A DNA stretch of 64,000 bases from Candidatus Marinacidobacterales bacterium. GTDB taxonomy: Bacteria > Acidobacteriota > Vicinamibacteria > Marinacidobacterales > SMYC01. Of the stretch, positions 27,795 through 33,486 are shown piece by piece. The notes under the pieces are model-generated. The model worked only from the letters and a program-made list of their open reading frames with translations, was not told the origin of the DNA and did not search any database. Within the stretch, counting starts at the first letter, position 1. Each line of letters opens with the position of its first letter. The position numbers and the translations under genes were made by a program. The stretch covers positions 704,001-768,000 of the forward strand of contig CBDCYI010000005.1 of the NCBI GenBank assembly GCA_965224085.1, read 5' to 3'.

Positions 27795-28793
27795 ATGCGG
27801 GCTCGGACTTTTCTCACGATGCTTGTTGTTTTTGCGTTCGTCGGGTTCGTGGTTTGGACGATTCGCTTGAACGAGGCGCTCGTGACGGTTCAGTTTGCGT
27901 TTTTCCAGCCGGTCGTGCTCGAGCTTTGGATGGTCATGCTCGCAGCTTTCGGGATCGGTGCGGGCGTTATCTTGTTCTTCGACCTCGCGGGAGGCGTTCG
28001 GCGTTTTGCTCACGCCCGCCGCCGGCGTCGTTTGCACGAGGCCCATCAAGCGGTCGAGGAGCTCTACATGGCCGGGCTGGACATGGTCTCTTCCGTCGAA
28101 GAGCGCGCGCTCGAGCAGGACATGCCGAAAGGCGTCCAGCTTGGCTTTGGCGTCGCGCAGCTTTCTGCCGGAGGAGCTAAGGAGGCGATCGCCGCCTTTC
28201 GGTTGATACTTGCCGACGATGAGAGCTTCGTTCCCGCCTACATTCGCTTGGGAGAGGCGCTCGCTGCGAACGACCAGACTGAAGAAGCGATACGCACGTG
28301 GCACCGCGGCTACGAGCTCACGGGCTCGACGGAGCCCCTCTCTTCGCTCCAAAATTTTTATTTGCGCGCCGAGCAGCCGGAAGCAGCGATAGGTGTGTGG
28401 AAGCAGGCCCTGATTCTCAGCGAGAACGAGGTTCCGCTCCGCTACTCTTTGGGAAAGCTTCACTACCGCTTATACATGCTCGATGAGGCGCTTCGCGAGT
28501 TTCAGATGATCGAGGATCGTGTGAGCGGCCTGCCCGCGCTCCATCTCTATGTGGCTCGAATCCTGGAGAGTAAGAACGAGCTCTCCGCCGCGCTCAGAAA
28601 GACCAAGTTGCTCGTCGCCGAGGTCGAAGGGCTGATGATGGACTATGTGTGCGAAAGCTGCGAGTGGCGCACGTCGGAATGGACGGAGCGCTGCTCACGT
28701 TGTGGGCACTGGGACACGGTGGGCCTGCATCTTCCCGCTGTCGACGCGCCCGAAGCCGTGATCGCGCCCTCGCCGACCTGGTCGACCCCGTAA
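27795..28793 (+). CDS. LapA-LapB-like fusion (2 TM, TPRs, rubredoxin-type CxxC..CxxC)
   Basis: N-terminal LapA-like TM pair, TPRs, and CESCEW...W..RCSRCGHWDT. Confidence 0.75.
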   Translation: MRARTFLTMLVVFAFVGFVVWTIRLNEALVTVQFAFFQPVVLELWMVMLAAFGIGAGVILFFDLAGGVRRFAHARRRRRLHEAHQAVEELYMAGLDMVSSVEERALEQDMPKGVQLGFGVAQLSAGGAKEAIAAFRLILADDESFVPAYIRLGEALAANDQTEEAIRTWHRGYELTGSTEPLSSLQNFYLRAEQPEAAIGVWKQALILSENEVPLRYSLGKLHYRLYMLDEALREFQMIEDRVSGLPALHLYVARILESKNELSAALRKTKLLVAEVEGLMMDYVCESCEWRTSEWTERCSRCGHWDTVGLHLPAVDAPEAVIAPSPTWSTP

Positions 28794-28844
28794 AGCCCGC
28801 GACTTGATGGATAGAGGCGCGAGCTTTCTGTCGTGCTGTCTGCA

Positions 28845-29597
28845 ATGACTGCTAGATACGATCGCCTGGAGCGGCTCGTGCGCGCCTGTATCCACGGGCT
28901 CGGCGCGCTTGCGTTCCCGGCCGAATGTCTCTTGTGCCACGAGCTCTTGCGGCGGCCGCTTTTGGGCCCGCTCTGCGAGCGCTGCATTGAGGCGCTGCCT
29001 CGTATCGAGCCACCATTTTGCGGATCCTGTGGTCTTCCCTACGCTCGGAGCGTTGCCCCCGGGCTATGCGGGCCGTGTCGCGGAGGCGAGCGGGTCTTCC
29101 GCAAGGCGCGCGCTGCGCTCCTCTACGATGATCGCGTGCAGCGTGTCCTGCATGCGTTGAAATTCGGCGGACGGGCGCGCCTCGGGACGCTTTTCGGGGG
29201 GCTGGCCGCCGAACGTTGGTGTCGGGCGGGAGAGCTCGAGGGCTACGCTGCCGTCGTCCCTTTGCCGCTTTCTTCGAGGCGGCGGCGTGCACGCGGATTC
29301 AATCAAGCGGCGATCGCGGCCCGCGCAGTGGCGACGATCGCGGGTGCTCCGATGCGCCCGCGCCTGCTCGTGAAGACGAGAGACAACCCCCCGCAAGCAG
29401 GGCTTTCGGCATCCGCGCGAAAGACCAACGTGTCAGGCGCCTATCGCGGCCGCATTCCGCAGAAGCTGGCCGGCTGCAGACTATTGTTGGTCGATGATGT
29501 TCTGACAACGGGCGCCACGGCGAGCGCTGCCGCTCGAGCGCTCCTTCGAGCCGGCGCTGGCACGGTGGATGTTCTTACGATCGCGCGGGTTCCGTGA
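28845..29597 (+). CDS. comF: ComF family protein
   Basis: Double Zn ribbon, RGFNQA and LLVDDVLTTGAT motifs. Confidence 0.92.
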   Translation: MTARYDRLERLVRACIHGLGALAFPAECLLCHELLRRPLLGPLCERCIEALPRIEPPFCGSCGLPYARSVAPGLCGPCRGGERVFRKARAALLYDDRVQRVLHALKFGGRARLGTLFGGLAAERWCRAGELEGYAAVVPLPLSSRRRRARGFNQAAIAARAVATIAGAPMRPRLLVKTRDNPPQAGLSASARKTNVSGAYRGRIPQKLAGCRLLLVDDVLTTGATASAAARALLRAGAGTVDVLTIARVP

Positions 29598-29659
29598 CCC
29601 GCCTTCGCCCTTCGGGCTACGGCGGGGCACGCCCCCTGCCTTTCGGGCTACGGCGGGGC
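29598..29659. repeat. REP-like tandem hairpins
   Basis: ttcgggctacggcggggc at 29611 and 29642; the first unit folds with a C(UUCG)G loop. Confidence 0.7.
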
Positions 29660-29755
29660 TTGCCGCCGCCGTTTTATACTAGCCAGACCAGCTGCTAGAA
29701 TGGAGAACCTGCTGAGGTCTCTCTACGCAGCTGATTTCAGACCGAGGAGTAGTTA

Positions 29756-30571
29756 ATGGCAACACGTATACTCGCGCTGACGGCGACGGCATGGCTCGTT
29801 TTCGGCAGCCTTGACACCGGGCTCCCTTGGAGCGAGGAGGGCGTCAAGCTCTTCTTGGAGAAAGCCATCGACAGCCTCGACGGACCCCTTAAAGGGTTCT
29901 ATGAGGATCGAGAAGTTTCTATCGTGGAGACCGCGAGCGATCCGACGATCTTCCCTCCACGCCTGCTCTTCGAAGTGGACCGCCTGGAGCCGTTTCCGTT
30001 TGCAGATCTCCCCGCCGACCGCAAGCGCGCGGTTCGCAAATACGGTGAGGAAGCGCTCGAGGAATCCGGGGATTTGCCGTGGCGCCTGATCGAAAGCTAC
30101 CACGCGCTCACGGAAGCGTTCAGGAGCTCGGATTATGAAGCCGCCATTCTACACTCCGCCGAGATCGCTCACTATGTCGGCGCCATGTATGTCCCGGTCA
30201 ATGTCTCGCGTGACGGTGATGGCGAGCCGACGGGGCAGCACGGATTGCGGGAGCGATTCGATTCACGCCTGGTCGAGGTGTACAGCAACAAGATCGATGT
30301 GCACACGCCCTCCGCTCTTTATCTCGACTATCCGGAGGAATATGCGATCTCGATACCTCGCAAGAGCTATATCTGGGTCGACAACCTTCTCTATTTCGAT
30401 TACTTGTCACGATTGGGCGTAAAAAGCTACGACCGCTTCTATTACGAGGGTATGTTTCTTCGCGCCGAGCCTTTGTTGGAAGAGCTTCTCGAGGGCGCCG
30501 CGCTCGATACCGGATGTTTCTGGTACACCGCATGGGTCGCCGCGCGCCGGCCTGAGCTCCCAGACAAATAG
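29756..30571 (+). CDS. secreted S1/P1 nuclease / Zn-phospholipase C-fold protein, degenerate metal ligands
   Basis: Signal peptide then W25; G.LPW, AHYV, DG..TGQ.G...RF.S and WYTAW..A.RP motifs. Confidence 0.75.
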   Translation: MATRILALTATAWLVFGSLDTGLPWSEEGVKLFLEKAIDSLDGPLKGFYEDREVSIVETASDPTIFPPRLLFEVDRLEPFPFADLPADRKRAVRKYGEEALEESGDLPWRLIESYHALTEAFRSSDYEAAILHSAEIAHYVGAMYVPVNVSRDGDGEPTGQHGLRERFDSRLVEVYSNKIDVHTPSALYLDYPEEYAISIPRKSYIWVDNLLYFDYLSRLGVKSYDRFYYEGMFLRAEPLLEELLEGAALDTGCFWYTAWVAARRPELPDK

Positions 30572-30616
30572 GCGGACGCTCGGCCAAAAAGACGAGCAGT
30601 AAGTACTAAGAGGGTA

Positions 30617-31255
30617 TTGGGATTGCCAGATAACGGCGAGTCTGTTTCTGTCAGCGAGCTCGAGGATCGGGAGTTGATCAAACGCTGCCGCGGCAACGGA
30701 AGTGTCAAAGAGCAGGCCTGGGAGGAAGTGGTCCGGCGTTTCCGGCGCCGCGTCTTCGGGATCGCGTACAAATTCACGGGACGCTACGAGGAGTCTCAGG
30801 ATCTGACCCAGGAAATATTTCTGCGTGTCTTCCGCTCGCTGGACAAGTTCGACGCCAATGCTGATTTCGGAACGTGGCTCTATTCCGTCAGCCGCAACCA
30901 CTGCATCGACCACTATCGCAGCGGTCGCCGCGAAAGAGAGTCCCTCGTCCAGCACGAGGTCCATCTCGAGGAGTTGGCGTCTGTGCGTTTCGACCCTCAT
31001 CGCGCGGTCGAGGTGCGCGACAAGCGAGAAATGCTCCTCGAGGCGCTCTCCGGTCTACCCGATAAGCTGGGGGAGGCGGTGGTGCTGCGCGACATCAAAG
31101 GACTGTCGTATCAAGAGATTGTGGAACAATTGGAGCTTCCGGAAGGTACCGTGAAGAGCCGGATCAATCGTGGACGACTCGAGCTCGGTCGAGCTCTCGT
31201 CGTGATACGAAACCGTTCGAAAGGGCGAACGGAATCAACGGGTAACGTATTATGA
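30617..31255 (+). CDS. ECF sigma-70 factor
   Basis: QDLTQEIF, FGTWLYSVSRN, LSYQEI and GTVKSRINRGR motifs. Confidence 0.95.
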   Translation: MGLPDNGESVSVSELEDRELIKRCRGNGSVKEQAWEEVVRRFRRRVFGIAYKFTGRYEESQDLTQEIFLRVFRSLDKFDANADFGTWLYSVSRNHCIDHYRSGRRERESLVQHEVHLEELASVRFDPHRAVEVRDKREMLLEALSGLPDKLGEAVVLRDIKGLSYQEIVEQLELPEGTVKSRINRGRLELGRALVVIRNRSKGRTESTGNVL

Positions 31256-31587
31256 ATCTTCGAATCGACACTCAAGATGACATCAAAATCGTTCGTGTCA
31301 AGGAGGAGCGGCTCGTCTACGCCATGCTGAGCTCTTTTTTCTCGGAGGTCTCGGCGGTCGTCGAATCGGGCGCCAAAAAGCTCGTGATCGACTTGAGCGA
31401 TGTCAACTATATCGACAGCGCCTCCGTGGGCTGCCTGATGGATATCTACCGTTCCGTTGCCGAAGGCTCCGGCACGATCAAGCTCGTAGGGCTTCAAGAG
31501 CGCGTCGAGACCATGGTGAGCATGACGGGTCTTCACAATTTCATGGAAATCTTCCGGGACGAAAAAACCGCCCTCGAGAGTTTCTGA
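31252..31587 (+). CDS. STAS domain anti-sigma antagonist
   Basis: LVIDLSDVNYIDSASVGCL; ATGA overlap with the ECF gene. Confidence 0.92.
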   Translation: MNLRIDTQDDIKIVRVKEERLVYAMLSSFFSEVSAVVESGAKKLVIDLSDVNYIDSASVGCLMDIYRSVAEGSGTIKLVGLQERVETMVSMTGLHNFMEIFRDEKTALESF

Positions 31588-31613: not shown

Positions 31614-31907
31614 ATGAAGAAAGTCAAAATGTTGACGGGACAAGAGATTCCTCTCGATGGGGATCTTCTCTTTGTGTTGGAATCGCTCTATCGCGAAGTC
31701 GCGCTCAAACGCGAGCTCAGAGCGACGTTTGATGACATGATGAGCGAGATCGTAAACATCGTGGAGGGCATGGACGAAGAGACGCGCAAGCAGTACCTCA
31801 TCGAAAGCCTCTTCTTGAATACGGTGACATACGAGAACGAACGACTTGGAGCTTACATGAAAAAGCTGAGCGGTCAGGCGGGCGAGGACAAAGGATCGAA
31901 GCTATGA
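31614..31907 (+). CDS. hypothetical 97-aa helical protein
   Basis: Operon position; ATGA overlap with the next gene. Confidence 0.75.
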   Translation: MKKVKMLTGQEIPLDGDLLFVLESLYREVALKRELRATFDDMMSEIVNIVEGMDEETRKQYLIESLFLNTVTYENERLGAYMKKLSGQAGEDKGSKL

Positions 31908-32323
31908 AACGCGACCGAGCCCTGCACGTCGTCGGGATTCTGATGCTCGTCGCAGCGGGAGCGACGGCCTTTGCCGGGACGGCGCAGATTAACAAGAGCG
32001 GCCCGCGTATGGAAATCGAACCGAGCGATCACGACTTTGGCGGCGTCAAACCGAATCAAGAGCTGCTGCACGTATTCACCGTGTCGAACGTAGGTACCGA
32101 GCCTCTCGAGATCCGTCGCATCTCCACATCCTGCGGCTGCACCGCCGCGATCGCGAAAACCCGTGTTTTGGACCCCGGTGAATCCACGACGCTCGAAGTG
32201 GCGCTCGAGACGCGGAAGTACAAGGGCGTCATCGAAAAGAGCGTTTCCGTGGCGTCGAACGACCCTGCCCGCGTGCACACGGTACGCGTGAAAGCCTTCG
32301 TGGAAGTGCCCGAGGTGCACTAG
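31904..32323 (+). CDS. DUF1573 Ig-like secreted protein
   Basis: Signal peptide; HDFG, NVGTEPL.I, SCGCT and SNDP motifs. Confidence 0.88.
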   Translation: MKRDRALHVVGILMLVAAGATAFAGTAQINKSGPRMEIEPSDHDFGGVKPNQELLHVFTVSNVGTEPLEIRRISTSCGCTAAIAKTRVLDPGESTTLEVALETRKYKGVIEKSVSVASNDPARVHTVRVKAFVEVPEVH

Positions 32324-32516: not shown

Positions 32517-33443
32517 CTAGCGGGACGTTCGGGCGAGTAGTGGCTGGGCGACTTTGGCGGCGATCGGTGTTGGCGTCGGCTCCGTGACGAGCTCCCAGTT
32601 TTCCGGCGTTCCGAGGATGGCCTGGACAAGCCTCGTGTGCAGCTCGTGGCCGGCGCGCATCGCGACGACATGGGCGTGGAGCGGTCTTCCGAGCAATACG
32701 AGATCGCCGAGCAAATCGAGAACCTTGTGGCGTACGAACTCGTCCGGGAAACGCAAGGGGTTGTTCAAAACACCGGTTTCACCGAGAACGACGGCGTTAT
32801 CGAGCGAGCCGCCTAGGGCGAGGCCGCTCTGCCGCATGAGCTCGACGTCTTTCAGGAATCCGAAGGTCCGCGCGGGAGCAATTTCTTCGACGAAGCTGGT
32901 CTCATCGATCTCCGCCGAATATTCCTGGTGCCGGAGAAGAGGGTGCGCGAAGTTGATGGTGTAGCTGAGCTTCAATCTATCCGAAGGATAGGCCGTGACG
33001 GACCGTCCTCCATCCGTCACGGAGATAGGGCTTGTTAGCTTGATGACGGAACGGGCCGTCGTGAGCTTGCGAATGCCCGCCTCATGAATGAGGTAAATAA
33101 ACGCTGCTGCGCTTCCGTCCATGATAGGCACTTCGGCGCCATCGAGCTCTACGATCACGTTGTCGACGCCGAGCGAGCGAAACGCGGCTAGCAGGTGCTC
33201 GACGGTCTCGATGCGCACGTTATCCCGCGCCAGGCACGTGGCGTGATTGATGTGGGAAAGATGTTCCACCGTGGCAGGGATGTCCCTATCGGACCCGGCA
33301 GCTATGGCAGGTAAATCCACGCGTCGAAAAACGATACCATGATCGGCGGGTGCGGGCTTGAGCGTCAGTTCGACTCTTCGGCCAGAATGAAGGCCAATCC
33401 CGACGCAGCTGGTGACTTCTTTGAGGGTTGTTTGCTTCTGCAT
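32517..33443 (-). CDS. lpxC: UDP-3-O-acyl-N-acetylglucosamine deacetylase
   Basis: GIGLHSG, TVEHL, PIMDGSA, ARTFG and RHKVLD motifs. Confidence 0.97.
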   Translation of the reverse strand: MQKQTTLKEVTSCVGIGLHSGRRVELTLKPAPADHGIVFRRVDLPAIAAGSDRDIPATVEHLSHINHATCLARDNVRIETVEHLLAAFRSLGVDNVIVELDGAEVPIMDGSAAAFIYLIHEAGIRKLTTARSVIKLTSPISVTDGGRSVTAYPSDRLKLSYTINFAHPLLRHQEYSAEIDETSFVEEIAPARTFGFLKDVELMRQSGLALGGSLDNAVVLGETGVLNNPLRFPDEFVRHKVLDLLGDLVLLGRPLHAHVVAMRAGHELHTRLVQAILGTPENWELVTEPTPTPIAAKVAQPLLARTSR

Positions 33444-33470
33444 GCGTCTGACGTTCCGGGGCCTGATTAA

Positions 33471-33486
33471 AGCAACTATCATGCCA
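33471..33486 (-). promoter_or_regulatory. sigma54 -24/-12 promoter upstream of lpxC
   Basis: Minus strand TGGCATGATAGTTGCT (GG-N10-GC). Confidence 0.7.

Follow-up and report, generated by a model that had tools for sequence, protein, structure and literature searches.

The PLC/P1-nuclease superfamily is known for its trinuclear-zinc hydrolases, which include toxins, phospholipases and laboratory nucleases. We take the trinuclear zinc cluster of these enzymes to be held by nine ligands, namely a Trp, five His and three Asp/Glu. This list is supported in part by a study of S1 nuclease (PMC5201275), according to which the backbone of the N-terminal Trp and several His and Asp side chains coordinate zinc, the trinuclear cluster is 'obligatory' for catalysis, and the substitution D65N abolishes activity. 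Two described branches are the zinc-dependent phospholipases C (Pfam PF00882), represented by B. cereus PC-PLC (1AH7) and Listeria PlcB (8CQM), and the S1/P1 nucleases (PF02265), represented by S1 from Aspergillus (5FB9), SmNuc1 from Stenotrophomonas (8QJL), the plant enzyme AtBFN2 (3W52) and P1 (1AK0). A third group consists of proteins labelled 'zinc dependent phospholipase C family protein' (P0118-P0269 in our collection) from Acidobacteriota, Bacteroidota-like and other metagenomic bacteria, mostly ~270-330 aa long with some longer fusions. Long forms of 740-920 aa also occur among the representatives, and at one locus (L030, 3162-6191, genome G051) a 1009-aa open frame begins with the intact-ligand relative and continues into a long C-terminal extension.

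The gene considered here lies in a 64-kb stretch of DNA, hereafter the window, and encodes a 271-aa protein of the same predicted fold in which most of the zinc ligands are replaced. Its coding sequence occupies 29756..30571 on the + strand (the end coordinate includes the stop) with an ATG start, and a putative ribosome-binding site, GAGGAG, can be read 7 nt 5' of the ATG at 29744..29749 (+). This agrees exactly with the intact open reading frame described in the initial annotation, and the motifs quoted there are all found: PWSEEGV at residue 24, SDPT at 61, RLLFEVD at 69, HYVGAMYVPVN at 139 and GLRERFD at 163. The protein was also said to be secreted, and export is indeed predicted from a hydrophobic presequence of 24 residues (29756..29827, +), which may be a signal peptide or an uncleaved anchor, from the alignment of W25 with residue 1 of mature PLC, and from the small residue that precedes this Trp in relatives (90/105 family members). 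W25 itself is conserved in 108/112 ungapped homologues. The window protein carries Pro24 at -1 of W25, and since Pro at this position disfavours cleavage by signal peptidase, exact cleavage ahead of W25 is doubtful. A predicted AlphaFold2 structure places a helix at residues 2-17, with low pLDDT at 15-20. There is weak RNA evidence for expression of the gene: a 215-nt Logan contig from an RNA-Seq metatranscriptome, a type of library in which DNA carry-over is possible, maps to 29770-29984 with 4 differences, and a second metatranscriptome contig of 696 nt maps to 30257-30950 with 48 differences and 5 gaps. The latter covers the end of the gene and the start of the downstream sigma gene, although such a contig need not stem from one transcript.

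The window protein was matched by neither Pfam nor NCBIfam at E<=1, and a sequence search of the PDB returned no meaningful match, so its earlier assignment to a family could not be taken as given. A homologue search with the window protein returned 121 proteins, the first 117 of them ~270 aa long; the few named ones among these are called 'hypothetical protein' and come from Vicinamibacteria or Acidobacteriota MAGs. The weakest three of the 121 (P0118-P0120; ~322 aa, E 1e-17 to 1e-19) have intact ligands; they were also the three intact-ligand proteins among seven homologues scanned against domain families, and they match both PF02265 and PF00882 weakly. An exhaustive HMMER search extended the collection to 994 representative clusters at E<=1e-3, and phmmer connects the window protein to intact-ligand relatives at E 1e-17 to 1e-36. 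These are thus true sequence homologues, and they share the scaffold motifs PF, G-LPW, DGQ-T-Q-G and WYTAW with the window protein. While a profile dominated by degenerate members (A1) yielded chance matches only in a PDB search, a profile of 34 intact relatives together with the window protein found both S1 nuclease (E 3e-6) and B. cereus PLC (E 2.5e-5). Neither PF02265 nor PF00882 matched the window protein or any of 34 orthologues; ESM Atlas returned only Acidobacteriota 'hypothetical protein' clusters, with PF02265/PF00882 present on a minority of members.

Structure prediction points the same way. The AlphaFold2 model, built from alignment A1, is all-helical with a pLDDT of 90.8 and a pTM of 0.87, and every Foldseek match in the PDB with E <0.3 has the PLC/P1-nuclease fold (B. 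cereus PLC, Listeria PlcB, SmNuc1, AtBFN2, S1, TBN1, the N-domains of clostridial alpha-toxins, and P1). VIA-align, a structure search independent of Foldseek, was run over 48,161 chains and matched all six representative chains of this fold at Z 15.8-18.6 (1ah7 18.6, 8cqm 18.3, 8qjl 17.0, 5fb9 16.9, 3w52 16.1, 1olp 15.8), the next chain scoring 4.3; it aligned model residue 24/25 to residue 1 of the mature enzymes. The model thus confirms a predicted PLC/P1-nuclease fold, shared with P1 nuclease and PLC alike. Of the label 'S1/P1-nuclease fold' given in the initial annotation, the fold stands and the restriction to nucleases does not: B. cereus PLC (Z 18.6) scores slightly above the nucleases (17.0 and 16.9), and the intact relatives match both Pfam families weakly, so that PLC appears at least as close as the nucleases. 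The likeness to the phospholipases spans ~215 residues at an rmsd of 2.9 A for 1AH7 and 8CQM and includes a Trp that aligns with the first residue of the mature enzyme, predicted export and similar size, but sequence identity is only 10%, PF00882 gives no match, the window protein has replaced five or six of the nine zinc ligands, and lipase activity by the canonical mechanism would not be expected. The S1/P1 nucleases likewise share the fold (Z 16.1-17.0) and the N-terminal Trp, and can be reached from the profile of intact relatives, but there is no PF02265 match and the trinuclear cluster appears dismantled in the window protein.

To score the ligands, every retrieved protein was aligned to the A1 profile and the nine ligand columns were read. 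The intact relatives P0118-P0120 read WGxxxH, xPD, HFID, HYxxDxHxPLH and GxHxxxE at these columns. In the window protein, the Trp is kept at position 25 and the following His is replaced by Val at position 30 (29828..29845, +, the equivalent of His6 in the former zinc site B). The catalytic Asp is ambiguous between D62 and T64 and the His of 'HFID' is replaced by Leu at position 70 (29939..29965, +). Further along, a His is kept at position 139, while Asp gives way to Ala at position 143 and His to Asn at position 149 (30170..30202, +). In the former zinc site C (30248..30262, +), His is replaced by Arg at position 165 and Glu by Asp at position 169, which keeps the acid, and R167 between them is invariant in 41 orthologues. 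The protein thus retains 3 (strict) or 4 (lenient) of the nine ligands. H139 is not a constrained ligand, since this residue is H, R or Q within the window's genus.

The earlier count of six replaced ligands holds for five with certainty (V30, L70, A143, N149 and R165), while the sixth, T64, is plausible and depends on the alignment register. In the relatives, the second residue of 'xPD' is an invariant Asp (D in 116/125) with Lys/Arg at +3 in 94/125, an arrangement that resembles Asp65/Lys68 of S1. The degenerate clade has a 7-residue deletion immediately past this motif, and in the window protein T64 is aligned at the Asp column; nearby, D62 is conserved in 104/118 members of the clade, with Arg/Lys at its +3 in 57/118. 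Because the deletion adjoins T64 and D62 is conserved so close by, the status of the Asp is ambiguous, and D62 could be the ancestral catalytic Asp in a shifted register.

The loss of ligands extends well beyond the window protein. Among 115 homologues of >=200 aa, the 112 that are ungapped at the ligand columns, window protein included, retain 0-4 ligands (strict) or 1-5 (lenient). The 'zinc dependent phospholipase C family' relatives differ sharply in this respect: of 120 ungapped full-length representatives at <50% identity, 106 have all nine ligands and another 9 have eight. Across 117 homologues, His is never present at positions 70, 149 or 165, and the replacements are themselves conserved (N149 in 99, R165 in 101 and D169 in 93), an acid (E/D) being found at position 143 in 90/117. 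Positions 30, 70 and 139, which belong to the former sites A and B, vary among homologues. Near the former site C, charged or polar residues are invariant or nearly so, namely D155, R167, D169, D191, D209 and N210. All 41 aligned orthologues (from 40 genomes of the order, G027 left out, and from G099, which belongs to a different order within the class) are degenerate. The substitutions are therefore common to the orthologues, none of which retains the ligand set, and the loss is ancient.

Phylogenetic reconstruction gives a consistent picture. FastTree, run on 166 rows, groups the degenerate proteins in a 45-tip clade with a support of 98. A quick IQ-TREE search was run with the nine ligand columns removed on 67 rows, made up of the query, alternate degenerate rows with five named ones added, and one intact row in three; here, one branch (SH-aLRT 99) split the 24 rows with <=5 ligands from the other 43. 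A single loss of the zinc ligands is the natural reading, unproven since the tree is unrooted. Some proteins outside the degenerate clade have lost ligands too. P0126, P0170 and P0205 retain 6/9, and in P0126 the third site alone is lost (H>N, H>A, E>G), which suggests further independent partial losses. A separately placed degenerate homologue from another class (G054; L026, 4881-5801) may represent an independent loss of the zinc site. An adenosine deaminase gene follows it after 14 nt, it lies between the genes for an amino-acid permease and GlmS, and UvrD is also among the neighbours; this context has no bearing on the window gene.

The window gene is also a core gene of its order, which sets it apart from the intact relatives. 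One copy was found in each of the 41/41 genomes searched in the order, the window's own genome among them, spanning three families and 19 genera, and 40/41 copies lack an internal stop; the remaining one, in the unpublished genome G027, has a single TAG. Part of the 41/41 tally rests on G027, and the claim is unchanged with this genome removed. In a phylum-wide sample, only 26/201 genomes had any match at E<=1e-5, so the relatives are patchy and not core genes. Six of these 26 were fetched: one (G099) is degenerate and lies in the same neighbourhood, one (G054) is degenerate in another context, and four have intact motifs. The comF/ECF sigma neighbourhood is absent from the latter four loci (L027-L030), one of which (L027) comes from the unpublished G192, without which the claim is again unchanged.

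The gene is kept under purifying selection. Pairwise Nei-Gojobori dN/dS was 0.019-0.214 in 35/35 pairs with dS of 0.05-0.5 (more distant pairs were saturated and left out), and 0.13-0.21 inside the window's genus. A recent decay or pseudogene is thus ruled out by the single copy per genome, the low dN/dS and the degeneracy of all aligned orthologues. We also considered that an intact paralogue in the same genome might do the enzymatic job; a search of the window's genome with the intact-relative profile found none, and this option was rejected as there is no second member of the superfamily. Taken together, homology to an enzyme family, lost catalytic residues and purifying selection support the view of the gene as a probable pseudo-enzyme, as had been proposed: most zinc ligands are replaced, while the reading frame and the scaffold motifs are intact.

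Our preferred explanation, to which we assign a probability of about 0.6, is an exported pseudo-enzyme with the PLC/P1 fold, whose zinc cluster was dismantled in an ancestor and which would now bind a phosphate-bearing ligand in the periplasm or envelope. The protein would descend from trinuclear-zinc phosphoesterases, the cluster having been lost in the common ancestor of the degenerate clade. One former metal site would have been rebuilt as the conserved Asn149-Arg165-Asp169, with the invariant Arg167 beside it, and the former active-site cleft would most likely hold its ligand, perhaps a lipid head group or a nucleotide, through arginines that replace the metal. On this view the decay was stepwise: the clade ancestor lost site C and the site-A histidines, and the remaining site B (the N-terminal Trp, His30 and acid 143) was lost later in the window's lineage. 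The gene is nevertheless retained as a single-copy core gene under purifying selection, with a predicted housekeeping-type promoter of its own, and it may act in the envelope functions specified by neighbouring genes (an ECF sigma module, a DUF1573 protein, a lapB-like gene and lpxC). We infer 'non-catalytic' from the lost ligands: with most of them gone, the protein should be unable to carry out the zinc-dependent phosphodiester hydrolysis typical of the family. A non-enzymatic job is most likely for this conserved single-copy gene across an order of soil Acidobacteria.

The most serious alternative is that the protein is still an enzyme, in which a remodelled site (D62, E/D143, N149, D155, D169 and Arg165/167) would hydrolyse or transfer phosphoesters, either without a metal or with a different one (Ca/Mg/Mn or a single zinc). 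The conserved acids and amides (D62, E/D143, N149, D155, D169) could indeed bind another metal, and both the conservation of the replacements at positions 149, 165 and 169 and the strong purifying selection would fit an active site. A further argument comes from the graded state of the clade. In 51 of its members the Trp is preceded by a small residue, position 30 is His and position 143 is an acid, the three together making up the former N-terminal zinc site, whereas Pro, Val and Ala occur jointly at the same three positions in 13 proteins, the window's included; as the proteins are related, these joint counts are a description and not a statistical test. Since those 51 members retain a complete Trp/His/acid site, some may still bind one zinc; about half of the clade may have kept one metal site in this way, the lineage of the window being apparently the most degenerate form. 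The same gradation speaks against an enzyme, because the window's lineage has lost the triad (P24/V30/A143 in the 13 proteins) with no sign of relaxed selection (omega 0.13-0.21). Moreover, positions 70 and 139 vary freely, and in S1 nuclease the single change D65N is enough to kill activity (PMC5201275). We therefore consider continued catalysis unlikely, though it deserves attention, and the graded decay of the metal site within the clade offers natural controls for biochemistry.

A second alternative dispenses with a small-molecule ligand altogether and holds that the protein is purely structural, its helical domain serving as a stable module or scaffold that contacts envelope proteins. Such a role would suit a core single-copy gene with a housekeeping-type promoter, as well as the variable positions 30, 70 and 139 in the former zinc sites A and B. 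On the other hand, the invariant or near-invariant charged residues near the former site C suggest a specific polar site, and no partner was identified, which makes this reading distinctly unlikely in our judgement. A complex prediction between the mature protein (25-271) and the neighbouring DUF1573 protein (30-139), both supplied as alignments, scored 0.00 and carries no weight either way.

Genes around the window gene offer less guidance than their proximity might imply. Downstream on the same strand lie an ECF sigma gene (30617-31255, with Sigma70_r2 and r4_2 domains; present in 37/41 loci), a cytoplasmic STAS protein resembling anti-sigma antagonists (31252-31587; 38/41), a 97-aa ORF predicted to be cytoplasmic and of no known family (31614-31907; 38/41) and an exported DUF1573 Ig-like protein (31904-32323; 34/41), all on the + strand. 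Synteny is extensive, with the sigma, STAS and 97-aa genes found in 37-38/41 loci and DUF1573 in 34/41, given that 8/41 loci are only 3.8 kb long and leave the outer genes out of reach. The sigma block is not beside the gene in 4/41 loci (G007, G019, G021 and G023). Upstream, a ComF/GntX-like phosphoribosyltransferase (28833..29597, +; Pfam DZR_2 and PRTase, NF008616 at 5.8e-33) is found on the same strand in 39/41 loci, and the expected side also holds a LapA/LapB-like gene (39/41), which in the window encodes a fused LapA-domain/TPR/LapB zinc-ribbon protein (27795-28793); lpxC follows the block at 32517-33482 (-). The flanks are as first annotated, with ComF/GntX upstream and the ECF sigma downstream. 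The wider window also holds topA, a sigma-54 activator, lapAB, comF, lpxC, topoisomerase subunits, glycosyltransferases and ychF. The region is thus one of core-genome synteny, so that the neighbourhood says little on function.

Within these bounds, a more specific version of ligand binding can be entertained. RseB-type proteins of E. coli are periplasmic lipid-sensing partners of ECF sigma systems, and E. coli LapB controls the turnover of LpxC. The block of ECF sigma, STAS protein, 97-aa ORF and DUF1573 protein may form a partner-switching system, not described before, that controls an ECF sigma, no membrane anti-sigma factor being recognisable next to the sigma gene, and the region, with the LapA/LapB-like gene and lpxC flanking the block, may concern envelope lipid balance. 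By analogy, the dead PLC fold might serve in the periplasm to sense an envelope lipid that bears phosphate, either a phospholipid or a lipid A precursor; the arginines in place of the zinc ions would bind this lipid, and the protein would report on envelope lipid balance to the ECF sigma/STAS/97-aa module and to lapB-like/lpxC. The likeness to RseB consists of an exported protein encoded with an ECF sigma, here with a lipid- or phosphate-binding fold and with lapB-like and lpxC genes nearby; it is an analogy only, as the folds are unrelated and the sigma is followed by STAS and the 97-aa ORF without a membrane anti-sigma. While we regard this proposal as quite improbable, if true, a major class of soil Acidobacteria would universally have a protein that does the job of RseB with an unrelated fold.

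The intergenic region upstream of the gene bears directly on any link with comF. Downstream of comF there is a terminator-like G+C hairpin (29651..29668, +) of 6 pairs, all G-C, followed by a T-run (CCGTTTTATA), and then a sigma-70-type promoter-like site (29673..29701, +) made up of TTTATA, a 17-nt spacer and TG-TAGAAT, with the -10 box at 29696-29701. By eye, most of the 41 orthologous loci, across the three families, show a TAGAAT-like box ahead of the gene; in several genera a second such box, also noted by eye, lies between the gene and the sigma gene. We therefore read the gene as having its own predicted promoter, separated from comF by the terminator-like hairpin. No autoregulated ECF-type promoter was identified upstream, the conserved box being of the sigma-70-type TAGAAT form. 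Between comF and the promoter there is also a two-copy tandem repeat (29610-29659) of a ~31-nt G+C-rich element containing CTTCGGGCTACGGCGGGGC; it overlaps the hairpin and is unique to this spot in the window, and three copies of the element are visible at the G004 locus. The proposal in the initial annotation that the protein is a periplasmic DNA receptor or sensor acting with ComF in DNA uptake draws on the position of comF and on the binding of single-stranded nucleic acid by the nuclease branch of the fold (as judged from PDB titles), but it is very improbable given that the hairpin and a separate conserved promoter part the two genes, that the window gene stays in place where comF is ~3 kb away (G024, G036) or not found (the G010 and G007 loci), that the neighbours are all housekeeping genes of the core genome whose order is conserved, which leaves adjacency with little weight, that no other competence gene is present among the neighbours scanned, and that the fold is no nearer to the nucleases than to PLC.

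Returning to the exported pseudo-enzyme with a dismantled zinc cluster, our literature search, which covered few subscription journals, returned no description of a conserved zinc-less or catalytically dismantled branch of this superfamily. The branch reported here is a universal single-copy gene in every searched genome of one acidobacterial order and is present in one genome of another order of the same class; it belongs to a family that has no Pfam or NCBIfam model and is annotated solely as 'hypothetical protein'. By itself, the finding opens no long-standing question. Identifying the ligand would nevertheless tell what a core gene does in soil bacteria that are abundant but little studied, and would enlarge the list of bacterial pseudo-enzymes by one family.
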